The notes under the pieces: generated by a model
What the model saw: only the letters and a program-made list of their open reading frames with translations
Databases searched by the model: none
Told to the model about the DNA's origin: nothing
In this document: positions 46,332 to 61,626 of the stretch, piece by piece
How positions within the stretch are numbered: the first letter of the stretch is position 1
How the letters are laid out: the number at the start of each line of letters is the position of its first letter
Made by a program: the position numbers and the translations under genes
Origin: Candidatus Micrarchaeota archaeon
GTDB lineage: Archaea; Micrarchaeota; Micrarchaeia; Micrarchaeales; CABMGC01
Length of the DNA stretch: 64,000 nucleotides
Reading direction: 5' to 3'
Assembly (NCBI GenBank): GCA_028867335.1
Contig: JAGWGN010000002.1
Location: 9,829 to 73,828, forward strand

Positions 46332-47471
46332 TCAGAGCTTTCCTATGAATGTTCCGGAGCTGTGCGCGAATCCGCCGATGAAGTCGGAGATTGTTATCAC
46401 CGCAAAGTACGTTATCGCCATTATGAGCGCAGGGTAGAAGAGTATCGAGAGCCAGTACGCGCCCATTGAGCTTTGGATGTCGTGTAGGGTGCCCACAAGC
46501 GGGCTGGACGCCGAGATCGCATTTTGCTCTGCACCGGTTCCGGATCCGAACTGGCTAAGCTGCTGCGTTGCCTGGGCCAGCGAGGTGGCGACACCACCTT
46601 GCGTGAAGTAGAACGCGACCGCAAAGAGCAGCGGCATTATGAAGAAGAACCCTATGGCTATCGCCATGAACATCCCTCCGAGCGAGCGCGTAGGTATGAA
46701 GGCCCTGAGTATTACTCCTGGCAACAGGAAAACCGGGATGGCGGCGTACATCGCAAATATGAGTATGTAATACTCGACATTTAGCACCAGCAGGCCCTCC
46801 ATCAGCAGGTACGCAACAATCTGCGCAGGAAGCAAAAAGAACAGATCGATCGCCCCCTTGAACGCCTGAACTATGTAGCTTGTCACGAATTTCGTTATGC
46901 CCGAGGCGGCAAAGGTCCCGAACTGCCCTGTGTCGGGCACGGCACCTTGAGGCCCAAGACTCACCCCAAGAGTGTAGCTTGAGTAATACGCGTCAACGCT
47001 GTAGATGTTAAATAGCCCAGTTATCAGCGTTGTGGTTTGCGTTATGGTGCCGGTTATGTAGGTTAGCGAGGTCACATACGGGTTTTGTGGCCCGGTGAAG
47101 AGGGACGGGAGCACCCCGATCATCACCGCTGCAATGAACATGAAGAGTATAACTATCAGGGCCGTAGCGGTGGCCTCGTATATCTCACCTACCCCGAAGT
47201 CCCTCAGCCTCTGGTTTCTCAGGGCAACTCCTATTGCGAAAAGTATTGCGGCTATTGAAAATGCGACGGTCATGACCGCAAACCCAACGGGCAGCCACTG
47301 CTGCCAGGCGTTGTAGACCGCCTGGTTCACGCTGCTGCAGTACCATGGCGCAAGGTTTTGTATGTCTAGCTGGTTTGTGGCGCACGGCCCCCCTGCGCTC
47401 TGCGCATTTGCAAGCGACATGGCAAATACCACTAAAAGCGCGACAGCGACAATTGACTGGGCCATTTTCAT
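46332..47471 (-). CDS. polytopic membrane protein, tandem paralog 1 of 6 (VirB6/TrbL/CedA-like candidate)
   Basis: 379 aa. Sec-type signal peptide ...AMSLANA/QSA. Family motif PGVILRAFIPTRSLGGMFMAIAIGFFFIMP. Confidence 0.7.
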   Translation of the reverse strand: MKMAQSIVAVALLVVFAMSLANAQSAGGPCATNQLDIQNLAPWYCSSVNQAVYNAWQQWLPVGFAVMTVAFSIAAILFAIGVALRNQRLRDFGVGEIYEATATALIVILFMFIAAVMIGVLPSLFTGPQNPYVTSLTYITGTITQTTTLITGLFNIYSVDAYYSSYTLGVSLGPQGAVPDTGQFGTFAASGITKFVTSYIVQAFKGAIDLFFLLPAQIVAYLLMEGLLVLNVEYYILIFAMYAAIPVFLLPGVILRAFIPTRSLGGMFMAIAIGFFFIMPLLFAVAFYFTQGGVATSLAQATQQLSQFGSGTGAEQNAISASSPLVGTLHDIQSSMGAYWLSILFYPALIMAITYFAVITISDFIGGFAHSSGTFIGKL

Positions 47472-47480
47472 GTTTTCACC

Positions 47481-48533
47481 TTATGCGACGCTCGTGAGCA
47501 GCGAGAGGAAGTCCATCCTCTCTCCCACCGCCTGCGAGAAGTCAATTATGAATGTGTTAACTATCGTGAAGGTTATAAGAGGCAGTACAAGCGTTCCTGC
47601 CAGTGCAATTCCAAGCCATTCAAATACGGAGTTAACAATTGCGAGGACCGGACCTGTTGGGTCGCTTAGAAGGGCGACCGCATTTATCGCGTTGATCGCC
47701 GGCTGAACGGCAAGCACGCTGAGCACCTGCACCAAAAATCCGTAGGTTATCGAGACCATTATTGGGAATATGAGCCCGATTCCAAGCGCAAAGGCTATCA
47801 TCGCCCCTCCAAAGCTCCTGGTTATCCCGAAGATCCTCGCCACAAGCCCTAGCGGCAGCAGTATCGCGAAGATGAGCATAGCGGCGTCAAGCAGCAGAAG
47901 CTGCACCTGGGAGAGTATTATCAGCGAACCTATTGCAAGAGTCGACCCCTCAAGGAACTCGGCTATGGGAAGCGAGTCTAGAGTAAGCCCCAGGCTCAGA
48001 CCGAAGTTTGATATCGCCGGATTGAAGGAGTACTTTAGCTGGAAGCTCGGGGTGGATGAGAATAATATGGTCGCCCCGCCGATCACGTTGTTTAGGTAGT
48101 AGACAATGTTGCTGTTGAAATTGAATAAGTCGCACTCGGAGAGCCCGTAGATATCCGTAACCTGCGTGCAGTCGCTGTGCACCCCCCAGACTGCGGGAAT
48201 CCCTGCGGCCACACTGCCCGCCCCGGGAACCAGGTTTAGGTTTGTGAACAGGGGGATTGGGTTTATCGTGTAGACCATCAGCGCGAATCCGCTGAAAATT
48301 ATGACAAGCAGAAATGAGAAGAGCGTCTCGTACATCTTCAGCCTCGCCCACGTCCTCATCTCGCTTCTTCCCATAATCGGCGAGAGGCCGTAGATCAGGC
48401 TGGCGATAAGCATTATGACAAGGACCCCCAGGGACGCGAACGGGAACCATCCTGTGATCGGCGAGCAGAGCAGCCCGCCCACTCCGCTAGAGCAGCTTGC
48501 AGCAAACATGAGTATAGGGTCTAGCATGATCAT
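47481..48533 (-). CDS. polytopic membrane protein, tandem paralog 2 of 6
   Basis: 350 aa. Family motif LGLVARIFGITRSFGGAMIAFALGIGLIFP. ATGA overlap with paralog 3. Confidence 0.7.
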   Translation of the reverse strand: MIMLDPILMFAASCSSGVGGLLCSPITGWFPFASLGVLVIMLIASLIYGLSPIMGRSEMRTWARLKMYETLFSFLLVIIFSGFALMVYTINPIPLFTNLNLVPGAGSVAAGIPAVWGVHSDCTQVTDIYGLSECDLFNFNSNIVYYLNNVIGGATILFSSTPSFQLKYSFNPAISNFGLSLGLTLDSLPIAEFLEGSTLAIGSLIILSQVQLLLLDAAMLIFAILLPLGLVARIFGITRSFGGAMIAFALGIGLIFPIMVSITYGFLVQVLSVLAVQPAINAINAVALLSDPTGPVLAIVNSVFEWLGIALAGTLVLPLITFTIVNTFIIDFSQAVGERMDFLSLLTSVA

Positions 48534-49723
48534 ACCACCTTCTTTAGCATGTCTCTTGCCTGCAGCGAAGGGGCGCCGAGCAGGTCGGCGAATCCCTCAA
48601 GCAGGCTATAGGATATGACAAACGAAATTATTATACCGAATATCTGGAACGTCGCGTTTATTATCGAGAAGATGTAGAAGTCAAAGATGTCCACGAACTC
48701 GCTTTGCACCGCAGCCTGCGCCACCTCTCCTGCAAGGGTCTGCAGCTGCGTGAAAGGGTCCTGCGCAGTTGCCGCAGAGCCAATCGAGGAGGAGCCAAGT
48801 ATGTACTGCCCGCTGCAGTCCGCCTGCTCTAGGCAGTGGTAGTTCACCGTTGTGAATGGGTAGATGAGCGCAGGGAAGAAGATGTAGAATCCTATGAAGA
48901 GCGCAATCAGAGTGCCACCCGCCGCGCGAGTCCACGGGAACGAGCGCATCAGCACCCCTGCAAAGAGCAGGAGCGGGAAGAGGTAGTACACTATCACCAT
49001 GAAGAAGACAACCCCTATCTCTATCCCCACGACGCCCGAGACGAGAGGGCTCAAGAATCCCACCAGCAGCAGATAAGGCGTTATCCCAGCAAGCGGGGCT
49101 ATGGATATTCCCATTCCGTTTGGCATCAGGTTTATCACAAACCCTGAGGCAATGCTGTATCCGTATGAAATCCCGTTCAGCCCACTCAGCCCAGCTAGGT
49201 GGCTGACCGCATCGCTCATGTATGTCTGGCACACCGAGCTGTATATCCCCTGAATGTCCTGGTAGCCCGCGGTCGGGTTTGCCCCAAGCGCCACAAGCGG
49301 CGCGGACCCGGCCGCGCCTGCCGAGGCTATCACGGCATTGCCAAGGTTGGAGATGAACACCATGCCCCCGCTGAGCACCGCGGCGCCCCCGAAGAGCACA
49401 ACGATCATAATTATGTTAAGTACGCTCTCAAGGTACTCTGTCTTGACAAACACCAAGATCCTGGGTATCCCAAAGCCGTACCCCACGGCATACATTATCG
49501 CAAGCGCAGCAAACACCATCGCAACTATCAGGAGCGCGACCTGCAGCACAAAGCCGTAGCTGTCAAAGTTTGGCCCAAGCCATGGGAACGAGCCTGCTAT
49601 CCCCCCCTGCCCGAAGAAGTAGCTGCACGTGTTCGCGAAGTTGATGATCGATTGCGCGTGTGCAGTGCCTGTGAGTGCCATGAGGAGCGCAAACGCGGCC
49701 AGTACGAAATTTTTGACAATCAT
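48530..49723 (-). CDS. polytopic membrane protein, tandem paralog 3 of 6
   Basis: 397 aa. Signal peptide ...LTGTAHA/QSI. Family motif FAGVLMRSFPWTRAAGGTLIALFIGFYIFFP. Confidence 0.7.
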   Translation of the reverse strand: MIVKNFVLAAFALLMALTGTAHAQSIINFANTCSYFFGQGGIAGSFPWLGPNFDSYGFVLQVALLIVAMVFAALAIMYAVGYGFGIPRILVFVKTEYLESVLNIIMIVVLFGGAAVLSGGMVFISNLGNAVIASAGAAGSAPLVALGANPTAGYQDIQGIYSSVCQTYMSDAVSHLAGLSGLNGISYGYSIASGFVINLMPNGMGISIAPLAGITPYLLLVGFLSPLVSGVVGIEIGVVFFMVIVYYLFPLLLFAGVLMRSFPWTRAAGGTLIALFIGFYIFFPALIYPFTTVNYHCLEQADCSGQYILGSSSIGSAATAQDPFTQLQTLAGEVAQAAVQSEFVDIFDFYIFSIINATFQIFGIIISFVISYSLLEGFADLLGAPSLQARDMLKKVV

Positions 49724-51778
49724 CTAAACCAGCTTTCCAAGCCCTGCTATGTCTGTGTCCCCGCCAAAGAGGAACGAGACGTTCTTCATCGCCGAGAGTA
49801 TTATCAGTATGTTGAGGAAGGGTATGACAAATCCCGCCACGGACATCAGCCCGTAGACGTCCATGAACTCCATCGAGGTAGCGACTGCGGCCGATGGTAC
49901 GCACGGGGTGCTGAGTATGCCCGTCAGCTGCGGAACCTGCGAAACGAATCCGCCAAATGTGAACGCCGCCCCGAAGCCGAGCGAGATCGCCATGAGTACC
50001 GAGTCCTTTGCCTCCTCTGCCGGAAGGTTGCCTGCAAGCGGCCAGCATCCGTTGTAGTTCGCTATGGCCGAGATGCTCGGGAAGACATAAAAGTTTGGGG
50101 TCAGCGAGTTGTATATTATGTCCCTGCAGTCTGGGCTAACGTTGGGATCGCAAGGACTCTTCTCAGGCCCCCATGCTCCCCCGGTAGCGAAGGCGAGATT
50201 TATCTGTATGTTGTCAGAGCTCGATGTCTGCGTGTCGGTTGTTATCGGATTTAGCCCAACCGCAACCGCCTGCGATACCGAGTTCATGTTCCCCTTGTCG
50301 TCAGTTACCGTCAGCTTTATCGTCGGATTTGAAGCGCTAGCATATGTGTGGCTTAGTCCCTGCGGCCATCCTGTCGAGGTCTTCCCGTCCCCCCAGTCCC
50401 ATGCTATCGTTGTCTTGGGGTTCCCGGTGTTTTGGTTGTCAACGCTTCCCTGTGGCGTGACGATCAGACCAGTAGTCGGAAGGCCGTGAAGGTATATCCC
50501 AGGAAGCTGCTGCTCGTTTCCGACCTGCGTCACCTGTACCGTTGCCACACCGTACTGGTCAACATTCACCTCAAAGCTCACAGGCAGCAGTGCGCCCTTG
50601 GCAGACTGCGCAGTCTGGGAGATGGCCGCCCCCGGAATTACATCCAGATTCGCGCTCGCGCTTCCCGACTGCCCGTTGCTCTGCACGTCAAGAGTTATGG
50701 TTTGTGGGCCAGGAAGGAATGTGTGGGTTGCCGACATCCCGCTGCTAGTGGCGCTGTTGTCGTTCCAGTTCCACGTTGCCTGCGGCGGGATAGGGGCCCC
50801 GACAAGCTGGCTTGTGGTCACCCCGCTGCCCAGCATGTTGTATTCGATTATCATCACCAGCGGCAGTATTATCACAATCACCAGGGTTATCCCCATCAGG
50901 AGCCCTCCCGCGCTCCTCGTGAAGGAGATCGCCCTGAGGATTATGCCTGCGGCAAGAAGGAAAGGCCACACCACGAGCAGTATGAACATTATGACCAGCT
51001 GAGTTAGGAACATGTACATTATGAATATCCCCTGGGTCTCAAGCGGCTTTGTCATGAATGTTATCAGAGAGTATCCAGCGAAAGGCTGTGAGGCCAAGTC
51101 TATCGATAGCAGCCTAGGCACCAGCGGGTCTGCGCAGGCGGACGGCAGGCAGAGCCCCGGATCGGACTTTAGGGTGGAGAGGAATCCGATCATTCCCTCG
51201 TAGACGTAGAGCCCGTTTAGGTTCGCAGCCGCCTGATTTGTGAGGTTTGCAATCATCACGTAGCTTGAGGCAAGTCCGTAGTTCACATACGAGCTCGCGC
51301 TCCCTCCGGAGTTCTGCGAGTTCTCCACCAGCGCGCACACAAAGCTGGTCGGGTCCCCCTGCAGAAGGCTGACCTGGGAATTCTGCAAATCGCCGCACAT
51401 GTTCGTGACGTGGCTGCCGAAGTCTCCTGTTGATGTGCCCACAAGGCTTGAGTTCGAGACAAAGCTTCCGAAGAGAATGAGGACGCTTATTATCAGCACA
51501 ACGTATATCGCAGTCCCTATCGATTGGCCAAGCTCTGTTATTCCCCTCGAGCTTATCTGCCCGTCGTTTAGCAGCTTGCCGATGATGTACAGGAAGAACC
51601 CTATCGCGATCGAGATGAATATCGCGATGGAGACTATCGGGAGCCATGAGCTGAGCGATCCGAGCGGATTGGTCACCTGGGTCGGGAAGTTGATCACCTG
51701 GGCCGAGGCGGAGCCAAAGAGGATGGCGAGCGCTAGCAAAGCGAGCGAAAACGTGATTGCAGTTTTGTTGTGCGCCAT
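49724..51778 (-). CDS. polytopic membrane protein, tandem paralog 4 of 6, with two PKD-like domains inserted in an external loop
   Basis: Track ORF 49724..51808. I prefer the ATG at 51778 (MAHNKTAITFSLALLALAILFGSASA/QV), 4 nt after the upstream stop. Family motif AAGIILRAISFTRSAGGLLMGITLVIVIILP. The insert carries ATWNWNDNS...HTFLPGPQTITLDV and TIAWDWGDGKTSTGWPQGLSHTYASASNPTIKLTVTDDKGN. Confidence 0.7.
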   Translation of the reverse strand: MAHNKTAITFSLALLALAILFGSASAQVINFPTQVTNPLGSLSSWLPIVSIAIFISIAIGFFLYIIGKLLNDGQISSRGITELGQSIGTAIYVVLIISVLILFGSFVSNSSLVGTSTGDFGSHVTNMCGDLQNSQVSLLQGDPTSFVCALVENSQNSGGSASSYVNYGLASSYVMIANLTNQAAANLNGLYVYEGMIGFLSTLKSDPGLCLPSACADPLVPRLLSIDLASQPFAGYSLITFMTKPLETQGIFIMYMFLTQLVIMFILLVVWPFLLAAGIILRAISFTRSAGGLLMGITLVIVIILPLVMIIEYNMLGSGVTTSQLVGAPIPPQATWNWNDNSATSSGMSATHTFLPGPQTITLDVQSNGQSGSASANLDVIPGAAISQTAQSAKGALLPVSFEVNVDQYGVATVQVTQVGNEQQLPGIYLHGLPTTGLIVTPQGSVDNQNTGNPKTTIAWDWGDGKTSTGWPQGLSHTYASASNPTIKLTVTDDKGNMNSVSQAVAVGLNPITTDTQTSSSDNIQINLAFATGGAWGPEKSPCDPNVSPDCRDIIYNSLTPNFYVFPSISAIANYNGCWPLAGNLPAEEAKDSVLMAISLGFGAAFTFGGFVSQVPQLTGILSTPCVPSAAVATSMEFMDVYGLMSVAGFVIPFLNILIILSAMKNVSFLFGGDTDIAGLGKLV

Positions 51779-51782
51779 AAAC

Positions 51783-52967
51783 TCAGCTAAAGAGGCTCTC
51801 CGACCCAAGGAAGTTTAGCGCCGCGCTGATTCCCTTGGCAAGCCCTGCCGCCAGCCCTATCGTTATTGCAAGGTCAAGCGCTATGAGCACAGTCGTCTGG
51901 AAAATGTACCCTGCCACCTGCATCCCGACGTTTGTTACTATCGCAGGGGCCGCGAAGATGGCTGTGAGCGGATCCGAGGACTTGAGGAATGTGCTAAAGA
52001 ACTCCCCTACAGCGCTGCCGTAAAAGTTTGTGGGCAGCTGGACCCCGCCGAATCCGAAGTCCGGCTGCGGGGCCGATCCAAAGAGCGAGGACTGAGTGAG
52101 CCCAGGAACATTGTAGCTTCCAGAGTACTGCGGGTAGGGGTTTGCGCAGCTTGCCTGCGAGGGGGTGCAGTACATCCAGTTTATTATCTGTGCATCCATA
52201 ACAAAAGTCATCGGGAAGATGAAATAGAAAGCTAGTGCTATGGCGAGGAACTCGTTTGCGGCCTGCCTGAGCCTAGGCCCGGTGAAGGAGAGGCTTCGCA
52301 TTATGAGCGCTACGGGAAGCACCACAGTCAGCGCTGCTGCCTGTATGAGCGGAAGGGCGAGGAACTGCAAAAAGAGCATCGAGAAGCTTAGGACAACAAG
52401 CGGTATGAAGACATCCGTTAGAACAGTTGCGTAGTTCTTGTATATCGAGCTGAAGTCAGGTGCGCCCACGCTTGCTGCGAATATCTTGGAGTTTTTCAGC
52501 CCGGGTATCAGGGGGTTGAGCGGCAGGTCTGGCAGCGCCTCCGAGAGCCCTGTGAGCACTCCGGAATAGATCGTGAACGCTATGCTTGTGGAGTAGATGC
52601 TGTTCATCAGCCCTATCCCGTTGACAAAGAGGAGCCCTCCCACGTAATGCTGCGCAAAGGAGAACGAGTCCTGGCTGGGCTGGGTGAGTTGCAGGCTGAC
52701 ATTGCAGGCCGTTGTGGCTATCCCCATTATGATGACGATTATCAGCATGCTGATTATCGCCTGCCCAAGCTCAAATCGCACAAATCCCCTGATCCTCTCC
52801 CTCTCCCTTCCCCCTGCAAAGTTTGCGATAAGATACACAAGGCCCGCTATCGTCAGGCTGAGCAGTATGACAAGAGCGCTTATCCCGATCCAGTCGTTGC
52901 TGTTTATCCCCCCAAAAGTGCAGCTGCTTGAAACAGCGGAGGATGCTTGGAATAGTAGGTTTTGCAT
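51783..52967 (-). CDS. polytopic membrane protein, tandem paralog 5 of 6 (most divergent)
   Basis: 394 aa. Degenerate motif VALIMRSLSFTGPRLRQAANEFLAIALAFYFIFP. No obvious cleavable signal peptide. Confidence 0.65.
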   Translation of the reverse strand: MQNLLFQASSAVSSSCTFGGINSNDWIGISALVILLSLTIAGLVYLIANFAGGRERERIRGFVRFELGQAIISMLIIVIIMGIATTACNVSLQLTQPSQDSFSFAQHYVGGLLFVNGIGLMNSIYSTSIAFTIYSGVLTGLSEALPDLPLNPLIPGLKNSKIFAASVGAPDFSSIYKNYATVLTDVFIPLVVLSFSMLFLQFLALPLIQAAALTVVLPVALIMRSLSFTGPRLRQAANEFLAIALAFYFIFPMTFVMDAQIINWMYCTPSQASCANPYPQYSGSYNVPGLTQSSLFGSAPQPDFGFGGVQLPTNFYGSAVGEFFSTFLKSSDPLTAIFAAPAIVTNVGMQVAGYIFQTTVLIALDLAITIGLAAGLAKGISAALNFLGSESLFS

Positions 52968-52971
52968 AATA

Positions 52972-54183
52972 TCACTTTATCTTGAGCTTCCCGAACTCTA
53001 TGTTTATCGTTCCCCCAAGCGACTTTGCTATGCTGTCTATTATAGGGAAGGCGATCGCAAGGTCAAGGATCAAGAGCAAAAACTGAACGACCGCAGGCAT
53101 GGTGAATCTAAAAACCCCGTTCAGGCCCGGATATATCGAGCTTATGCTTGCGAGCGCGTCTGCCGCTCCCTGCCCCTGCGGCAGATAAGAAGTCGCCGAA
53201 GAGATCCACCACGGCGCAGTGGCCGATGCGCCTGCCGTTCCGGGCACTGCTATGTACGTGTTCACTATGTTGCTTATCGGCTGGTTCACTATCAGTATTA
53301 TCGATGGAAAGACTATGGTTATCCCAATCCCTATCCCTATCAGGGTCCCCCCAATCCCCCTTACGAACGGCATCGCCCTGAAGATTATCCCCATAGGTAT
53401 CATGAATGCGAGTCCGATGAATACGAGCATCGGCATGAGGTAATACTCCATCCCTATCACTGTGTAAACTGGTAGGATTATCATGCTTATCGCGTCGTTT
53501 ATCAGTGACTCGTAGCCTCCCGCATCAGGGGCTCCAGCCAGCATCGGGTTTTTGTAGATTGAGAATCCTGTCCCCAAGGTGAATGTTGGGATTGCCTGAA
53601 GGATCGTGGCCCCCAGCGGAATGGGTATGTAGTATCCCACCTGCAGGTTGCTGATTGCTCCGAGTCCCAGGCTGATCCCAAGCAGGTACCCTATGTAGTT
53701 TGCGCCTCCAAGCATCACGCTGCCCCCTGAAGGGTTTGGTTGCACAGTGCCGCAGAAAGCGAGTTGCAAATAGCTCTGAGTGGCAGTGGTCAGCGCGGAG
53801 AGCGATGCGCCCAGCGAGCTGCCTGCAGGCACGTTCACAGAAGACCCGGCAAGGCCCACTGCCACGCTTCCAAGCAGGACCATTATTGAGTATATCCCTG
53901 CGATGAGCATCGCCGACTTTGCAACCTCCCAGTACTCCTTCTTCACCCAGTTGGAGAGCTGCGTTCCGGGAACCAGCTTTCCGACTATGTATCCTATAGC
54001 GATTATGTCAAAGGAGATGCTCAAGGCGATGAGCGCAATCCCTATCAAGGGAATCTGGTTTATCGTTATGCCCACCGGTGCGGTATTTGTGCAGATGTTC
54101 TGGGCGTTTGAGACCCCGAAGAGGAAAAGGAAGAGCAGCAGTGGCGCCATTACCCTAGAAAGTCGCCCTCCCATCAAAACCAA
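52972..54183 (-). CDS. polytopic membrane protein, tandem paralog 6 of 6
   Basis: 403 aa. Signal peptide ...LFGVSNA/QNI. Family motif PMGIIFRAMPFVRGIGGTLIGIGIGITIVFP. Confidence 0.7.
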   Translation of the reverse strand: MVLMGGRLSRVMAPLLLFLFLFGVSNAQNICTNTAPVGITINQIPLIGIALIALSISFDIIAIGYIVGKLVPGTQLSNWVKKEYWEVAKSAMLIAGIYSIMVLLGSVAVGLAGSSVNVPAGSSLGASLSALTTATQSYLQLAFCGTVQPNPSGGSVMLGGANYIGYLLGISLGLGAISNLQVGYYIPIPLGATILQAIPTFTLGTGFSIYKNPMLAGAPDAGGYESLINDAISMIILPVYTVIGMEYYLMPMLVFIGLAFMIPMGIIFRAMPFVRGIGGTLIGIGIGITIVFPSIILIVNQPISNIVNTYIAVPGTAGASATAPWWISSATSYLPQGQGAADALASISSIYPGLNGVFRFTMPAVVQFLLLILDLAIAFPIIDSIAKSLGGTINIEFGKLKIK

Positions 54184-56957: not shown

Positions 56958-57371
56958 TCAGCACGCAAGTGAAGAGAGTCCCGATCCGAAGTTCAGTATT
57001 GTTGATATTATGAATGGCGCAAGTATCACGAGTATCACTCCGATGACCCCACCGAGAATCATACCCATTGCCCATCCCTGCATGCTTGCCTTTACCTGTC
57101 CTGCCGCAGGCATGAAGTGTCCGACTGCGTACAGCACTCCTCCCACGAGGAACATGACAAGAGCGATCACTCCGATGACAGTCCTCACTCCGCCGACTAT
57201 GCCGCAGAGCTGTGAGGTTAGAACATCAATTGTTGAGCCGTTGGTTCCTGAAACCGTAGTTCCAGAAGAAGATCCTCCTCCAGAAACGCTAGTTGCAGCA
57301 TTTACAATGCTAAACATGCTACCTAGAAGTATTGTAAGCATCCAAAGAAGTCTAATGTTTGAACTCTTCAC
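56958..57371 (-). CDS. VirB2/TrbC/CedA1/TedC-like pilin candidate
   Basis: 137 aa with a GTG start. Sec signal peptide MKSSNIRLLWMLTILLGSMFSIVNA/ATS. Next comes a Ser/Gly/Thr-rich segment, then two hydrophobic helices (VRTVIGVIALVMFLVGGVLYAVG and WAMGMILGGVIGVILVILAPFIISTIL) joined by the short loop HFMPAAGQVKASMQG. First gene of the operon. Confidence 0.6.
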   Translation of the reverse strand: MKSSNIRLLWMLTILLGSMFSIVNAATSVSGGGSSSGTTVSGTNGSTIDVLTSQLCGIVGGVRTVIGVIALVMFLVGGVLYAVGHFMPAAGQVKASMQGWAMGMILGGVIGVILVILAPFIISTILNFGSGLSSLAC

Positions 57372-57543: not shown

Positions 57544-59706
57544 ATGAATGCGACTGGGATAGCTAGCATTTTTGGGTTAGGAATAACCATTTTCATGCTT
57601 AGTTTTTTCGGTTCCGCATATTTTTTCTCACCTTCTCAACATGGCCTTAACACGCTTTCTACCCCATCGCAACAGATACAAATGAGCCTTTCCCAATCAG
57701 TTAGTGGGGGAGGATTAACCGTAACACTAAGTGGAACCATAACGGACCCCAACCAAGGCGCTCAGATAAGCTATGGTTCTGTATCGGTAAATTGGGGAGA
57801 CGGGTCCTCAACACAAGGGTTGTATCCGGTCCATACTTACTCTCATTCGGGTTCCTATACAATAACAACAACTGTGCGGGATAGTTTAGGCAACACTGCC
57901 ACAAATACAAAAAATGTGAATCTTGCCGGAGGGAGCGGCGGCACAACTATTTCTACCTCATTTCCTGGAATAACCGATGCTTCTACAGGTTTCACTTCGC
58001 CTACCCTTAATTTCAACCCACAAGTAGGTGGTAACGGTATGTTCGTAACTGTTAGCGGAACTATAGTGGACCCAAACAAGGGTGCAAGCATAAGATCTGT
58101 GACATGGGACTGGGGCGATGGCTCTCCAGACACCACTGGCTTTTCGCCACAGCATAGCTATACCATTCCTGGGCAGTACAGTATTTCAGGAACGGTAGTT
58201 GATACTTTTGGAGAGGCCTCAAGCCAGATTGAATCAGTCAGCGTCTCACAAGGTTCTGGTGCAACCATTCAGATCATTACCACAAACAATCAGGGCCAGA
58301 ATAATCTGCCAATTTCAATTTCAGTGACTGCAACAACAAGCGGTATGACAGTAACACCACGCGGCACCATAAACGACCCAAATCCTGCAGCCGCTACAAT
58401 ATCTGTAACCTGGGACTGGGGTGACAACAGTGCGCAATCTAACGGCTGGCCTTCAGGCCTCAGTCATACCTATTCTCAGTCAGGAACTTACATAATAACT
58501 ATTACTGCAACTGATGACCTAGGGCTTCGCAACTCTCAATCCATAACAACTACGGTTGGTGGAGGCTCCTCAACATCTTCTGGTTCATCTGGCGGAATAC
58601 AGATACAGTTCAATTTGATTAAAAATGGCGGACTCAAAGTGACCCCACAGGGGTCTGCAACAGATACTGCGCAAGGCTCAGTGTTTAGTTCCGTAATCTG
58701 GGACTGGGGAGACGGAACTCCGGACACTCACGGCTGGCCTTCAGGCCTAAGTCATACCTACGCGCAAGGCGGAACATACACTGTAACATTTTCTGTTTCA
58801 GACAACTTCGGTCAGAGCGCCTCTGCAACACAGACAGTTTCGCTTCAGTCCGCCCTCTCACAAATCGGGTTCAATGTCAACTACCAGGCAAGTGGCCTTA
58901 CAGTTACCCCTTCTGGTAGCATAAACGATCCAAACGATGCCGCGAAGACTCTTTCGGTTAGCTGGGACTGGGGCGATGGAAGTTCGCCATCAGGTGGCTG
59001 GCCTTCAGGCCTCAGCCACACTTATGCATCTGCGGGGCAGTACGCAGTTACAATAACAGCGACAGATGACATAGGCCAGAGTAACACGAACGTCCAGCTC
59101 GTTACGGTTTCAGGAACAAGCGGGGGCACGACTTCCGGAGGCGTTTCAGGCAAACCCATTTCAATAAGCGTAAGCTATCCAAAGAGTGGGTTAAAGGTCA
59201 CTCCATCGGGTTCAATAAATGATCCAAACGATGCCGCGACATCAATTACGACAAACTGGGACTGGGGAGACGGCACAGCTCCTTCAACGGGCTGGCCTTC
59301 AGGCCTCAGCCACACATACTCGCAGCAGGGTACATACATCATAACATTGACTGCCACAGACAACATAGGGACAACCAACACTCAGAAAACGTCAGTCTCT
59401 GTTAGCCCTTCAGCCACCACGACAATCCAGCAATCCTCGATAGTGTCGGGCCAGCCTATCGCGATAAACGTCAACTATCAGAAAAGCGGGGAGACGGTAA
59501 TTCCCCAGGGGAGCATAAACGACCCTAACACCCTTGCCACCTCTCTGAATGTTCTCTGGAGCTGGGGCGACGGAACAACATCGGGTGCATGGCCTTCAGG
59601 CCTCAGCCACACCTACATAACTCCTGGATCATACACAATCACAGTCACAGCAAGGGACAATCTCGGGCTTACAAACACTGCAAGCCAGACGGTAAATGTG
59701 CAATAG
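57544..59706 (+). CDS. membrane-anchored or secreted protein with seven PKD domains
   Basis: 720 aa. N-terminal hydrophobic segment IASIFGLGITIFMLSFFGSAYFF. Seven units carry W(D/S)WGDG....GWPSGLSHTY...G.Y.IT.TA.D..G. Confidence 0.85.
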   Translation: MNATGIASIFGLGITIFMLSFFGSAYFFSPSQHGLNTLSTPSQQIQMSLSQSVSGGGLTVTLSGTITDPNQGAQISYGSVSVNWGDGSSTQGLYPVHTYSHSGSYTITTTVRDSLGNTATNTKNVNLAGGSGGTTISTSFPGITDASTGFTSPTLNFNPQVGGNGMFVTVSGTIVDPNKGASIRSVTWDWGDGSPDTTGFSPQHSYTIPGQYSISGTVVDTFGEASSQIESVSVSQGSGATIQIITTNNQGQNNLPISISVTATTSGMTVTPRGTINDPNPAAATISVTWDWGDNSAQSNGWPSGLSHTYSQSGTYIITITATDDLGLRNSQSITTTVGGGSSTSSGSSGGIQIQFNLIKNGGLKVTPQGSATDTAQGSVFSSVIWDWGDGTPDTHGWPSGLSHTYAQGGTYTVTFSVSDNFGQSASATQTVSLQSALSQIGFNVNYQASGLTVTPSGSINDPNDAAKTLSVSWDWGDGSSPSGGWPSGLSHTYASAGQYAVTITATDDIGQSNTNVQLVTVSGTSGGTTSGGVSGKPISISVSYPKSGLKVTPSGSINDPNDAATSITTNWDWGDGTAPSTGWPSGLSHTYSQQGTYIITLTATDNIGTTNTQKTSVSVSPSATTTIQQSSIVSGQPIAINVNYQKSGETVIPQGSINDPNTLATSLNVLWSWGDGTTSGAWPSGLSHTYITPGSYTITVTARDNLGLTNTASQTVNVQ

Positions 59707-60056
59707 AAACGCAGATACAAGCATCTTTTTATAACCTTAAAAGAGATTCCTTGACATATGGCCTGGCAGAATATATTAGTTAAAAATTTGCTACTTATTT
59801 TCATCGGATGTGCACTGATTAGCGCATCCCTCTCAGCATCCGCAACGCTTTCCGGATACACCGTAACATCAAACAATTCGATTCACTCGACGATGGACCC
59901 TTTCATAATAAATGTCAGCTACGCTGTTAGCTCTCTTAAAGTCACCCCGCTAGGAGTGGTTGTAGATCCAAACAATGATGCAAGAACAATATTTACAACC
60001 TGGAGCTGGGGCGACGGTTCGGTCACAACTGGCTGGCCTTCAGGCCTCAGCCACAC
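58444..60056 (+). repeat. six in-frame copies of a near-identical ~26-nt unit (GGCTGGCCTTCAGGCCTCAGCCACAC) encoding GWPSGLSH
   Basis: Copies start near 58444, 58732, 58996, 59290, 59590 (first bases differ) and 60031. Flanking codons are much less conserved at the nucleotide level. Confidence 0.8.
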
Positions 60057-60717
60057 ATACCTCCATGCAGGGAACTATACAATAAGGCTTACTGCAATTG
60101 ATGACATCGGGAACGTGAATACTCAGATAAGCCACATCTTTGTAAGCGGGGTAACCTCAAATCCATTCAGCATAAAACTCAAATTTGATAGGTCCGGCTC
60201 AAAAATAATACCTAATGGGACCATAAAAGACCAGGCGCGCAACGCCTCATCCATCTATCTTCTCTGGAGCTGGGGCGACGGAACTGTGGACTCTGGATGG
60301 ACAAAAAATCTAAACCACACCTACCCTGCGCCAGGCAATTACTCTGTTTCAATAGTGATGAGTGATAATGCCGGGAACAAAAACACCTACCAAAAATCTG
60401 TACTTATAAACAGTAACTTCCCAAAGCCGCCAAAGTTTGTTCCCCAGATAAGAACACTTAAGATTGGAGAGAATCTCACCAACGGTTACATAACTGTGAA
60501 GTTGGAGAACCTCATTTTCTCTGATAAAAATGGGAGCACAAAGGCGCAACTTGTGGTGTACAACAATGGCGTCTACACCAACCAGATTGTTGTAAAACCC
60601 CTTACAACCGTGAAAGTTAACTCTGGCGGAACAATCCTCTACATCTATGTCGGGCAGACTATCTTCGGACTATATAACGACAGGACTGCAGAAGTTGAAG
60701 TTGAGTACGCGCAATGA
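59758..60717 (+). CDS. secreted protein with two PKD domains and a C-terminal beta-rich domain
   Basis: 319 aa. Signal-like N terminus LLLIFIGCALISASLSASA. PKD units TTWSWGDGSVTTGWPSGLSHTYLHAGNYTIRLTAIDDIGN and LLWSWGDGTVDSGWTKNLNHTYPAPGNYSVSIVMSDNAGN. Confidence 0.8.
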   Translation: MAWQNILVKNLLLIFIGCALISASLSASATLSGYTVTSNNSIHSTMDPFIINVSYAVSSLKVTPLGVVVDPNNDARTIFTTWSWGDGSVTTGWPSGLSHTYLHAGNYTIRLTAIDDIGNVNTQISHIFVSGVTSNPFSIKLKFDRSGSKIIPNGTIKDQARNASSIYLLWSWGDGTVDSGWTKNLNHTYPAPGNYSVSIVMSDNAGNKNTYQKSVLINSNFPKPPKFVPQIRTLKIGENLTNGYITVKLENLIFSDKNGSTKAQLVVYNNGVYTNQIVVKPLTTVKVNSGGTILYIYVGQTIFGLYNDRTAEVEVEYAQ

Positions 60718-61626
60718 CTATCCAAGAGTGGCAAGTATTCCGTCCACAATCCCCTTAACCCCGACTCCTCCTGTGGCGCGAACAGCAATCCTGTGGCTGA
60801 GCACCGGCTTTGCAAGGAACTTTATGTCGTCCCTTGTGACCTCGGTCCTTCCCTCGATTAGCGCCTTTGCCTTTCCGCACATCATCAGCGCAATGTCGGC
60901 CCTCGGGCTTGCGCCCATCACAACGTGGATGTCGGTTCGCGTGGCATTGACTATCCCGGTGATGTAGTTTGCTACGTCATCTGGCATCTTGATTAGCTTT
61001 GCCTGCTGCTGGTACTCGATTATGTCCTGCGTGCTGATTATCTTGCTCACTATGCTCTTCTCCTCCCGTTCCTTGATTCGAAGCATCTCCTTCTCCTCCT
61101 CCTCGCTCGGGTAGTCGACATCGATCTTCATTATGAACCTGTCCGCAAGCACCTTTGGCAGCGGCTCGGTCCCCTCTATTCGCAGCGGGTTCTGGGTTGC
61201 AAAGGCTGTGAATGGCCTCGGAAGCTGCATGTCAACCCCTCCCGCGGTTACCTGCCGCTCCTCAAGTGTCTCAAGAAGCGCGCTCATCGTCTTTGGAGGG
61301 GACCTGTTGAGCTCGTCGATAAGCAGGATGTTTGTGAATATCGGTCCCTTCTTGAAGGCGGGCGAGTTGTTGTCGTCAAGGTAGGCGTAGCCGACTATGT
61401 CCTTGGGCTCTAGGTCCGGGGTCCCCTGGATCCTCTTGAAGTCCGCCTGTATGGTTGATGCAAGCGCCTTTGTCATGGTCGTCTTTGCGACTCCCGGCAC
61501 TCCCTCAAGCAGAGCGTGCCCGTTTGCAACGATTGCGATAAAGAGCAGCTCGATCGTGTCGGTCTTTCCGGATATGTGCTTTTTCATCTCGGCAAGCGTC
61601 CTTGAATAGGCCTCTTTTGCGTCCAA
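60718..61626 (-). CDS. moxR: MoxR-family AAA+ ATPase
   Basis: 302 aa. LLEGVPGVAKTTMTKALA (Walker A), LLIDELNRSPPKTMSALLE (Walker B region) and the typical MoxR length. Confidence 0.85.
   Translation of the reverse strand: MDAKEAYSRTLAEMKKHISGKTDTIELLFIAIVANGHALLEGVPGVAKTTMTKALASTIQADFKRIQGTPDLEPKDIVGYAYLDDNNSPAFKKGPIFTNILLIDELNRSPPKTMSALLETLEERQVTAGGVDMQLPRPFTAFATQNPLRIEGTEPLPKVLADRFIMKIDVDYPSEEEEKEMLRIKEREEKSIVSKIISTQDIIEYQQQAKLIKMPDDVANYITGIVNATRTDIHVVMGASPRADIALMMCGKAKALIEGRTEVTRDDIKFLAKPVLSHRIAVRATGGVGVKGIVDGILATLG

Follow-up and report, generated by a model that had tools for sequence, protein, structure and literature searches.

Why should one of six tandem membrane proteins, in an archaeal gene cluster that resembles conjugation machinery, carry in one of its loops a PKD domain of the kind that builds two secreted proteins encoded in the same neighbourhood? 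The question is raised by a 64,000-nucleotide stretch of DNA from a member of the Micrarchaeota, a DPANN lineage (contig C22:9829-73828 of a 0.96 Mb genome assembly in 62 contigs; hereafter the window). A first-pass annotation of the window had pointed to the range 50249-50800 on the minus strand, which corresponds to residues 337-520 of the open reading frame (ORF) of one of these membrane proteins, paralog 4 (P4), and had read its contents as PKD modules that tie the neighbouring PKD proteins to a membrane complex. Overall, we believe, with a probability of roughly 70%, that immunoglobulin (Ig)-like modules have accreted on the external loops of the subunits of this machine, and that the second PKD unit of paralog 4, unit 2 (u2), stems from the PKD subtype of the two adjacent proteins, which we call PKD-A and PKD-B.

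Unit 2 resembles the neighbouring PKD units beyond the generic level

Unit 2 is a bona fide PKD domain, matching Pfam PKD_4 (PF18911) at 50 bits against a cut-off of 27 (E=3.2e-13) and PKD (PF00801) at 30.5 bits (cut-off 23.5). At residues 480-489, or nucleotides (nt) 50342-50371, it bears the motif GWPxGLSHTY, and six of the nine units of the neighbouring proteins, unit 1 of PKD-B among them with the full signature, combine GWP[SQ]GLSHTY with a first strand of the form (V/I)(T/I)PxG. The extended signature that had been proposed to unite u2 with the repeats encoded at 57544-60717 is therefore real in six of these units, while the remaining three lack it in full. In local alignments scored with BLOSUM62, u2 reaches 167-185 against the six signature units, values that overlap the range found among those units themselves (145-272), as against 65-100 for the other PKD units of the same genome (units 1-2 of PKD-A and three units on contig C36).

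The resemblance is equally specific on a wider scale. When 301 genomes of the phylum were scanned with u2, the top matches were the six neighbouring units at 56-65 bits, followed by the PKD-B ortholog of a congener, G280, at 47-51 bits, and everything else scored 38 bits or less. The similarity thus exceeds the generic PKD consensus, with 56-65 bits to the neighbours set against at most 38 outside the genus. A phmmer search of u2 was also run against 1.84 billion representatives, with single-unit scores recomputed locally for the 150 top-ranked PKD-rich proteins; because phmmer scores sum over repeats, its ranking is biased towards giant multi-repeat proteins, and a self-match of u2 would fall below the cut-off. 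Among these best 150 of 1.84 billion, the PKD-A ortholog heads the single-unit scores at 59 bits and alone carries the GWPxGLSHTY motif, and the others score 41 bits or less. The strict motif, back-translated to a DNA pattern, had 0 matches in 185,579 species genomes; in metagenomes it occurs only on two contigs that represent the same locus in sister strains, plus one chance match without a PKD domain. Taking together the motif, the (V/I)TPxG first strand and a score to these units higher than to any other PKD, u2 is, as judged from its sequence, a member of a lineage-specific PKD subtype to which PKD-A and PKD-B also belong.

The insert lies in the loop after the fourth transmembrane helix

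Paralog 4 had been described as about 290 amino acids (aa) longer than its siblings, and indeed, with siblings of 350-403 aa, the excess is ~290-340 aa. Translation probably begins at the ATG at 51778, for a product of 684 aa, the same length as the database protein P0001; the ORF read from the TTG at 51808 overlaps the upstream gene by 26 nt (window 51761-51808). The extra segment does not follow the conserved TR..GG block directly, as had been thought, since one transmembrane helix (TM4, residues 302-327) stands between them. The block itself is strongly conserved: T297, R298, G301 and G302 are invariant in 14 paralog-4 orthologs, and the loop that holds it (loop 3) is always 14 aa long, with 16 K+R per 100 aa.

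The two PKD-like units that had been recognised in the insert are of unequal standing. Unit 2 is a clear PKD domain, whereas unit 1 (u1) is a degenerate half-domain that scores 17.7 bits with PKD_4 (E=0.0036), below the 27-bit cut-off, over profile positions 36-76 only, and 14 bits (E=7e-4) with a local PKD hidden Markov model (HMM). We nonetheless call it PKD-derived because the ortholog units at the same site are clear PKD domains by the local HMM (35-40 bits); AlphaFold2 (AF2) models u1 as beta strands with a predicted local distance difference test score (pLDDT) of 70-83. Between the units lies a beta-rich linker of ~55 aa, residues 391-445, which has no match in Pfam, is present in P0002-P0005 and is missing from P0006-P0014; a further segment of ~45 aa follows u2. 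The extra length of paralog 4 is, moreover, PKD only in part. Residues 561-649 form a cysteine-containing, non-PKD module kept in all paralog-4 orthologs and marked by NFYVFP, NYNGCWP and the invariant cysteines C588 and C636, and the query segment ~560-694 was matched across the family. The full-length AF2 model of paralog 4, built from 14 sequences, has a pLDDT of 50.6, too poor for a fold search, and only the local confidence of the insert was therefore used.

The side of the membrane on which the insert lies was assessed from hydropathy and the positive-inside rule over orthologs (14 of paralog 4, 61 of paralog 5). Per 100 aa, loop 1, loop 3 and the C-terminal tail, all of constant length, carry 13-16 K+R; only 1-2 K+R are found in the mature N-terminus, loop 2 and loop 4, which vary in length and contain conserved cysteines. 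The layout predicted for paralog 4 from these sequence features is a signal peptide, an external N-terminus, five transmembrane helices and an internal C-terminus. Every Ig-like insertion that we found in the family falls into one of three segments predicted to be external, namely the N-terminus, loop 2 and loop 4: Ig/SprB repeats at the N-terminus of P0009 (genome G311) and Big_3_5 in P0030, a PKD domain in loop 2 of paralog 1 of G310, and PKD domains in loop 4 of both paralog 4 and paralog 5 (P0022). It is on account of this charge bias and of the position of all these insertions that the insert is placed in external loop 4, in agreement with the first-pass annotation, which had put it outside the cell and named topology as the check. 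In plain paralogs the loop after TM4 is disordered and variable in length, and in the AF2 model of paralog 5 (pLDDT 82; predicted template modelling score 0.76) it is the main stretch of low confidence.

A separate observation concerns genus g2, whose paralog-4 orthologs (L040, L041 and L042; 618-649 aa) have loop-4 inserts of ~150 aa without a Pfam match. The hypervariable loop therefore holds unrecognised modules outside the PKD-bearing genus as well.

Modules come and go between close strains

An alignment of 14 paralog-4 orthologs follows the insert at the level of strains. All three elements (u1, the linker and u2) are present in the window and in P0002 (74-76% identical); in P0003 (82-84% identical), P0004 and P0005, u1 and the linker occur without u2; P0006-P0008 have a well-preserved u1 only, and P0009-P0014 have no insert unit at all. 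The difference in u2 is a clean indel of ~99 aa, in which window residues 447-545 are replaced by a single residue in the orthologs that lack it. The comparison of orthologous operons for the presence or absence of the insert, proposed when the locus was first annotated, accordingly finds u2 present in the window and P0002 and absent from P0003-P0005.

Related modules sit in other paralogs. In the strain that carries P0002 (L047), paralog 5 holds a u1-type PKD domain (pattern W.WGDG...S..H/F.Y..PGP) in loop 4 (L047:5028-6488), and in G310 paralog 1 holds one of the same type in loop 2 (L054:11086-12555). In the tree of PKD units, the u1-type units of paralogs 4, 5 (L047) and 1 (G310) group together with support of 88/87, and from this grouping across paralogs it follows that modules have been exchanged among them; u2 of the window and u2 of P0002 are sisters (support 89/94). 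The phylogeny that had been called for is thus informative on both of these points, and leaves the position of u2 relative to the signature clade unplaced. The domain shuffling suggested by the first-pass annotation is borne out by the ~99-aa indel between close strains, by u1-type units in paralogs 4, 5 and 1, and by the restriction of the u2 subtype to this locus.

At the nucleotide level, paralog 4 encodes the motif as GGATGGCCGCAGGGACTAAGC, using synonymous codons other than those of the neighbours, with which it shares 22-24 of 36 nt. These differing codons rule out recent gene conversion between paralog 4 and the neighbouring genes, and the retention of the same peptide despite them suggests that the peptide is constrained. 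For the pair of the window and P0002, dN is 0.36 in u2 as against ~0.10-0.13 in the core, or about three times higher. The corresponding dN/dS of u2 is ~0.18, a rough ratio as dS is saturated (above 1), and u2 is under purifying selection.

Among themselves, the six neighbouring units share a nearly invariant nucleotide string, GGCTGGCCTTCAGGCCTCAG, which encodes GWPSGLS and is conserved at synonymous sites too (for example at 58441-58460). The codons that flank this string vary, and it contains a palindromic GGCC...GGCC.

The neighbouring PKD proteins occupy a variable slot

The MoxR gene (60718-61626) and the pilin gene (56958-57371) flank a cassette of variable surface proteins, as seen in loci L050-L055. 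It holds signature-type PKD proteins in the window, L044, L055 and G280. Orthologs of PKD-A stand in the same place in L044 and L055; in L044, the locus that carries P0003, both PKD proteins (720 and 319 aa) still adjoin the pilin gene, and in G280 a PKD-B ortholog with GWRSGLGHTY and GWPKNLTHTY adjoins MoxR. In G186 the slot holds two PKD proteins, of 12 and 5 units, that belong to another subtype, marked by Cys pairs, and paralog 4 of that genome has no PKD domain. The slot of G310 contains a 638-aa Cys/Tyr-rich repeat protein and a 703-aa Ig-like protein anchored by a transmembrane segment and ending in an acidic tail, and in G311, G038 and G042 the slot is empty.

Because the slot is variable or empty across genomes, PKD-A and PKD-B are not obligatory for the machine; their association with the cluster is confined, within the genus, to a few strains and a single congener. 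Nor does u2 occur in step with PKD-A and PKD-B. A functional link of these proteins to the membrane complex, which the shared signature had been taken to establish, is not borne out by these comparisons, in which the slot is variable or empty elsewhere, one strain keeps both PKD proteins without u2, and the u2 of another strain lacks the motif.

A fragment of a third PKD-repeat protein is encoded in the same genome on contig C36 (1225 nt, locus L007). Its units (...WGDG...YTHTY...), which represent another subtype, cluster with those of PKD proteins from the congeners G198 and G186.

The paralogs resemble VirB6 in position and predicted topology

In Agrobacterium tumefaciens, VirB6 has an external N-terminus, five transmembrane helices, a large external loop and an internal C-terminus. 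The six paralogs, each with a signal peptide, have this topology by prediction, and their operon supplies the partners of a VirB6 protein, a VirB2-like pilin candidate and a VirB4-like ATPase. From sequence, then, they appear VirB6-like in position and topology, and we do not file them as members of the family.

Sequence and profile searches give membership in VirB6/TrbL no support. The six paralogs and the 14 orthologs have no match in Pfam, including VirB6/TrbL (PF04610), and the paralogs have none among PDB sequences, whether searched as single sequences or as profiles. Paralog 5 matched 0 NCBIfam families, and so no model of the CedA/TedA type. With hhalign, the 61-sequence profile of paralog 5 aligned to a TrwI/VirB6 profile, built from homologs of the R388 protein (R388 accession NC_028464), at a probability of 0.15%, a weak negative given that the TrwI profile is narrow (at least 50% identity). 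A Foldseek search with the paralog-5 model placed three VirB6 chains (R388 TrwI) among the top 11 matches, 8rt9_F at E=0.16, 8rtd_L at E=0.59 and 8rtd_I at E=0.8; no match reached E<=0.001, and the TM-scores were 0.19-0.36. The designation of paralog 4 as a channel subunit accordingly finds no backing in Pfam, NCBIfam, PDB or hhalign, and in Foldseek finds only these VirB6 chains at E=0.16-0.8.

Origin and role of the insert

How might the module have come to lie where it does? We suggest that the external segments of the six paralogous subunits accept Ig-like modules, the loop after TM4 above all, and in the lineage of the window this loop holds an older and decayed u1, a beta linker and a second unit, u2. 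Unit 2 would most likely have arisen by duplication of a repeat of the neighbouring genes into paralog 4, the direction of transfer that we infer, and this would have happened before the split between the window strain and the P0002 strain rather than recently, with paralog 4 not being homogenised with its neighbours since. The module would then have been lost, or never fixed, in the P0003-type strain, and would have diverged in the P0002-type strain. Modules of this kind would equip the outside of the machine with an adhesive domain that evolves quickly, for contact with a host cell or with the surface coat of the archaeon itself. Such a role is plausible because Micrarchaeota are attached to Thermoplasmatales and strain-specific PKD proteins of the cell surface have been put forward as the interface of that contact (PMC5498576).

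Several observations weigh against this account. The tree of PKD units, which has 72 columns, does not place u2 inside the signature clade, although a joint clade is not rejected by the approximately unbiased (AU) test (p=0.34); quick and careful trees alike, at ~70 columns, were too short for placing u2 relative to that clade. The u2 of P0002 lacks the motif and scores 87-123, at the generic level, against the neighbours, and because of this the motif of the window could be the product of a later partial conversion and not ancestral. The full-length AF2 model of paralog 4 is poor, and membership of the paralogs in VirB6/TrbL lacks sequence or profile support.

The best of the alternatives is that the PKD module of paralog 4 binds the arrays of PKD-A and PKD-B, like with like, and so tethers a sheath or adhesin layer to the machine, the three genes forming one unit of function. 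A rare subtype common to these three genes only, PKD genes that divergently adjoin the first gene of the cluster across 172 bp, the retention of this arrangement in three sister strains, and a motif peptide kept in paralog 4 with different codons, which suggests selection on the peptide, are all as this model would have it. Some strains, however, possess only one of the two elements, and this weakens the claim: L044 encodes both PKD proteins while its paralog 4 has no u2, and in the P0002 strain u2 lacks the motif even though PKD-A has five copies. Furthermore, the PKD neighbours in G186 are of another subtype and face a paralog 4 without PKD, and the slot is empty in most genera. On this evidence we consider docking of this kind unlikely.

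A second alternative is neutral accretion, wherein external loops simply tolerate Ig-like insertions. On this view u2 was carried along as a copy of adjacent DNA and lacks a specific role, and it has the signature in common with the neighbours solely because its sequence came from close by. This would account for presence and absence that varies among strains 74-84% identical, for a u1 that is visibly decaying, for loop-4 inserts without a recognisable domain in other genera, and for an insert that evolves about three times faster than the core. It sits poorly with an open frame and a dN/dS of ~0.18 for u2 between strains (dS being saturated), with a motif kept in spite of different codons, and with the independent, repeated gain of PKD or Ig modules at external positions of three paralogs, which suggests that their display is useful; we therefore regard it as decidedly unlikely. 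That generic resemblance or recent gene conversion explains the similarity is extremely improbable, for although WDWGDG, HTY, GxY and D..G are generic PKD positions and the neighbours share a string that is invariant at the nucleotide level among themselves, the scores of the neighbours exceed those of all other PKD units examined (C36, the 301 phylum genomes and the best 150 of 1.84 billion) by ~18 bits or more, and the synonymous codons of paralog 4 differ from theirs.

Accretion of Ig-like modules on external loops, with u2 drawn from the subtype of the adjacent proteins, thus remains the reading that we prefer. Regardless of what the modules do, the outward loops of a conserved conjugation-like cluster collect Ig-like modules that differ between close strains. 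How DPANN archaea attach to their hosts, or exchange material with them, is an open question, for which this locus provides a concrete and testable handle. Should the modules prove to mediate contact, they would lend themselves to use as markers of host specificity and as targets for tagging or for localisation of the machine with antibodies; if they do not, the locus still documents, at the resolution of strains, shuffling between secreted repeat proteins and polytopic membrane proteins. A bolder proposal, which we hold to be very doubtful, is that the matching subtype is a strain-specific recognition interface on a DPANN conjugation-like machine, with the module and the secreted arrays together setting the partner for host docking or exchange. 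Were it true, module swapping among the six paralogs would be a way in which host range evolves, and would be the counterpart of the variation seen in Bartonella Trw and in Rickettsiales VirB6.

Comparison with known systems

In the Trw type IV secretion system (T4SS) of Bartonella, trwL and trwJ-I-H are amplified in tandem, which has been read as providing variant surfaces for host-specific adhesion, and the matches of our TrwI homolog search include several TrwI copies per Bartonella genome. The likeness to the present locus lies in the tandem amplification of surface-facing T4SS parts (the pilin and the VirB6 and VirB5 homologs). Bartonella, however, varies by whole-gene copies, whereas here variation comes by insertion of Ig-like modules, for which an adhesive role would be the analogue.

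A second comparison is with the Ced and Ted DNA import systems of Crenarchaeota, in which CedA and TedA are VirB6-like, CedA1 and TedC are VirB2-like pilins, and CedB and TedB are VirB4-like (PMC9905601). These too are chromosomal clusters in archaea that combine a VirB2-like pilin, polytopic membrane proteins and an ATPase of the VirB4/HerA class. Here, however, there are six paralogous membrane proteins in place of one, the ATPase has partial matches only to CedB and CedD, far below the family cut-offs, and the PKD decoration has not been described for Ced or Ted.

The rvh T4SS of the Rickettsiales (PMC2653234; PMC7648143) likewise belongs to obligately cell-associated organisms and has tandem copies of a polytopic subunit, VirB6; as here, some copies are enlarged by extra domains thought to be exposed. 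The enlargements in the Rickettsiales are giant C-terminal extensions, in contrast to the small PKD/Ig modules that lie inside an external loop of paralog 4. The present paralogs also differ in having no detectable sequence or profile similarity to VirB6/TrbL, and the archaeon, unlike the Rickettsiales, has a single membrane.

For the Micrarchaeota, host contact through strain-specific PKD proteins of the surface has been proposed on the basis of 'Ca. Mancarchaeum acidiphilum' Mia14, whose secreted, strain-variable PKD-repeat proteins were suggested to contact its Thermoplasmatales host (PMC5498576). PKD-A and PKD-B fit this class. That study reports neither a PKD module in a polytopic conjugation-like subunit nor a subtype common to both kinds of protein, and full-text keyword searches of the literature returned no account of PKD or Ig modules in an external loop of such subunits, of their swapping among paralogs, or of their being shared with secreted neighbours.

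The gene cluster and its features

The cluster is compact and runs on the minus strand from 57371 down to ~38979. It opens with the 137-aa pilin candidate, which leads the cluster in relatives too, and continues with a polytopic protein of 641 aa, a membrane protein of 257 aa and the six paralogs, and then two ~275-aa proteins, the 502-aa P-loop ATPase and more genes (Table 1). The best partial matches of the ATPase in NCBIfam are VirB4-like CD1110, CedB, CedD and HerA, every one far below its family cut-off. The pilin gene and PKD-A are divergently transcribed, with a 172-bp spacer between them. The order of MoxR gene, pilin gene and paralogs is kept in five other genomes from three genera, and the paralog-4 orthogroup is present in 101 of 118 genomes of the family. 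Because it encodes a VirB2-like pilin candidate and an ATPase of the VirB4/HerA class, this chromosomal cluster, kept across a Micrarchaeota family, resembles conjugation machinery of the type IV secretion or Ced/Ted kind, the identity that we infer for the machine.

Table 1. Features of the locus, with positions in the window
Feature	Position	Strand	Basis
Paralog 4 (P4), polytopic membrane protein, 694 aa from TTG start	49724..51808	-	ORF, hydropathy, positive-inside statistics over orthologs
FTRSAGG, conserved TR..GG motif in short cytoplasmic loop 3 between TM3 and TM4	50903..50923	-	Alignment
TM4, residues 302-327, between TR..GG and insert	50828..50905	-	Hydropathy; AF2 helix 295-327
Unit 1 (u1), degenerate PKD half-domain, residues 337-390, TWNWNDN...THTF.PGP	50639..50800	-	HMM and orthologs
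Beta-rich linker, residues 391-445 (~55 aa), between PKD units	50474..50638	-	AF2 strands 396-429, pLDDT 70-83
Unit 2 (u2), PKD domain of GWPxGLSHTY subtype, residues 446-517	50258..50473	-	Pfam PKD_4
Indel module, residues 447-545: u2 and ~30-aa tail	50174..50470	-	Ortholog alignment, contigs L044 and L047
External module specific to paralog-4 orthogroup, residues 561-649, non-PKD	49862..50128	-	Kept in all 14 orthologs
Six tandem polytopic paralogs (403, 394, 694, 397, 350, 379 aa), including paralog 4	46332..54183	-	ORFs and alignment of paralogs
Candidate VirB2-type pilin, 137 aa, first cluster gene	56958..57371	-	Pfam T4SS_pilin E=1.5e-4, below cut-off
VirB4/HerA-class P-loop ATPase, 502 aa	43077..44585	-	Pfam DUF87/HerA, AAA_10, TraG P-loop
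PKD-A, 720 aa, N-terminal hydrophobic anchor, 7 PKD units, signature in units 3-7	57544..59706	+	Pfam: 7 PKD stretches, E=6e-72
PKD-B, 319 aa, Sec signal peptide, 2 PKD units, ~100-aa C-terminal beta domain	59758..60717	+	Pfam

The cluster varies in other respects among relatives. In sister strains an extra gene of ~500 aa stands between the 641-aa and 257-aa genes (L044:5281-6780; L045:2252-3751; L055:137-1702); its product matches DUF2079 in L044 and L045, and the window has no such gene. The pilin-like gene, single in the window, is present as two tandem copies in G186 and G038 (L050:9444-10339; L051:6805-7956). In G311 the paralog-1 gene appears to be split into ORFs of 232 and 222 aa (L053:7627-8845).

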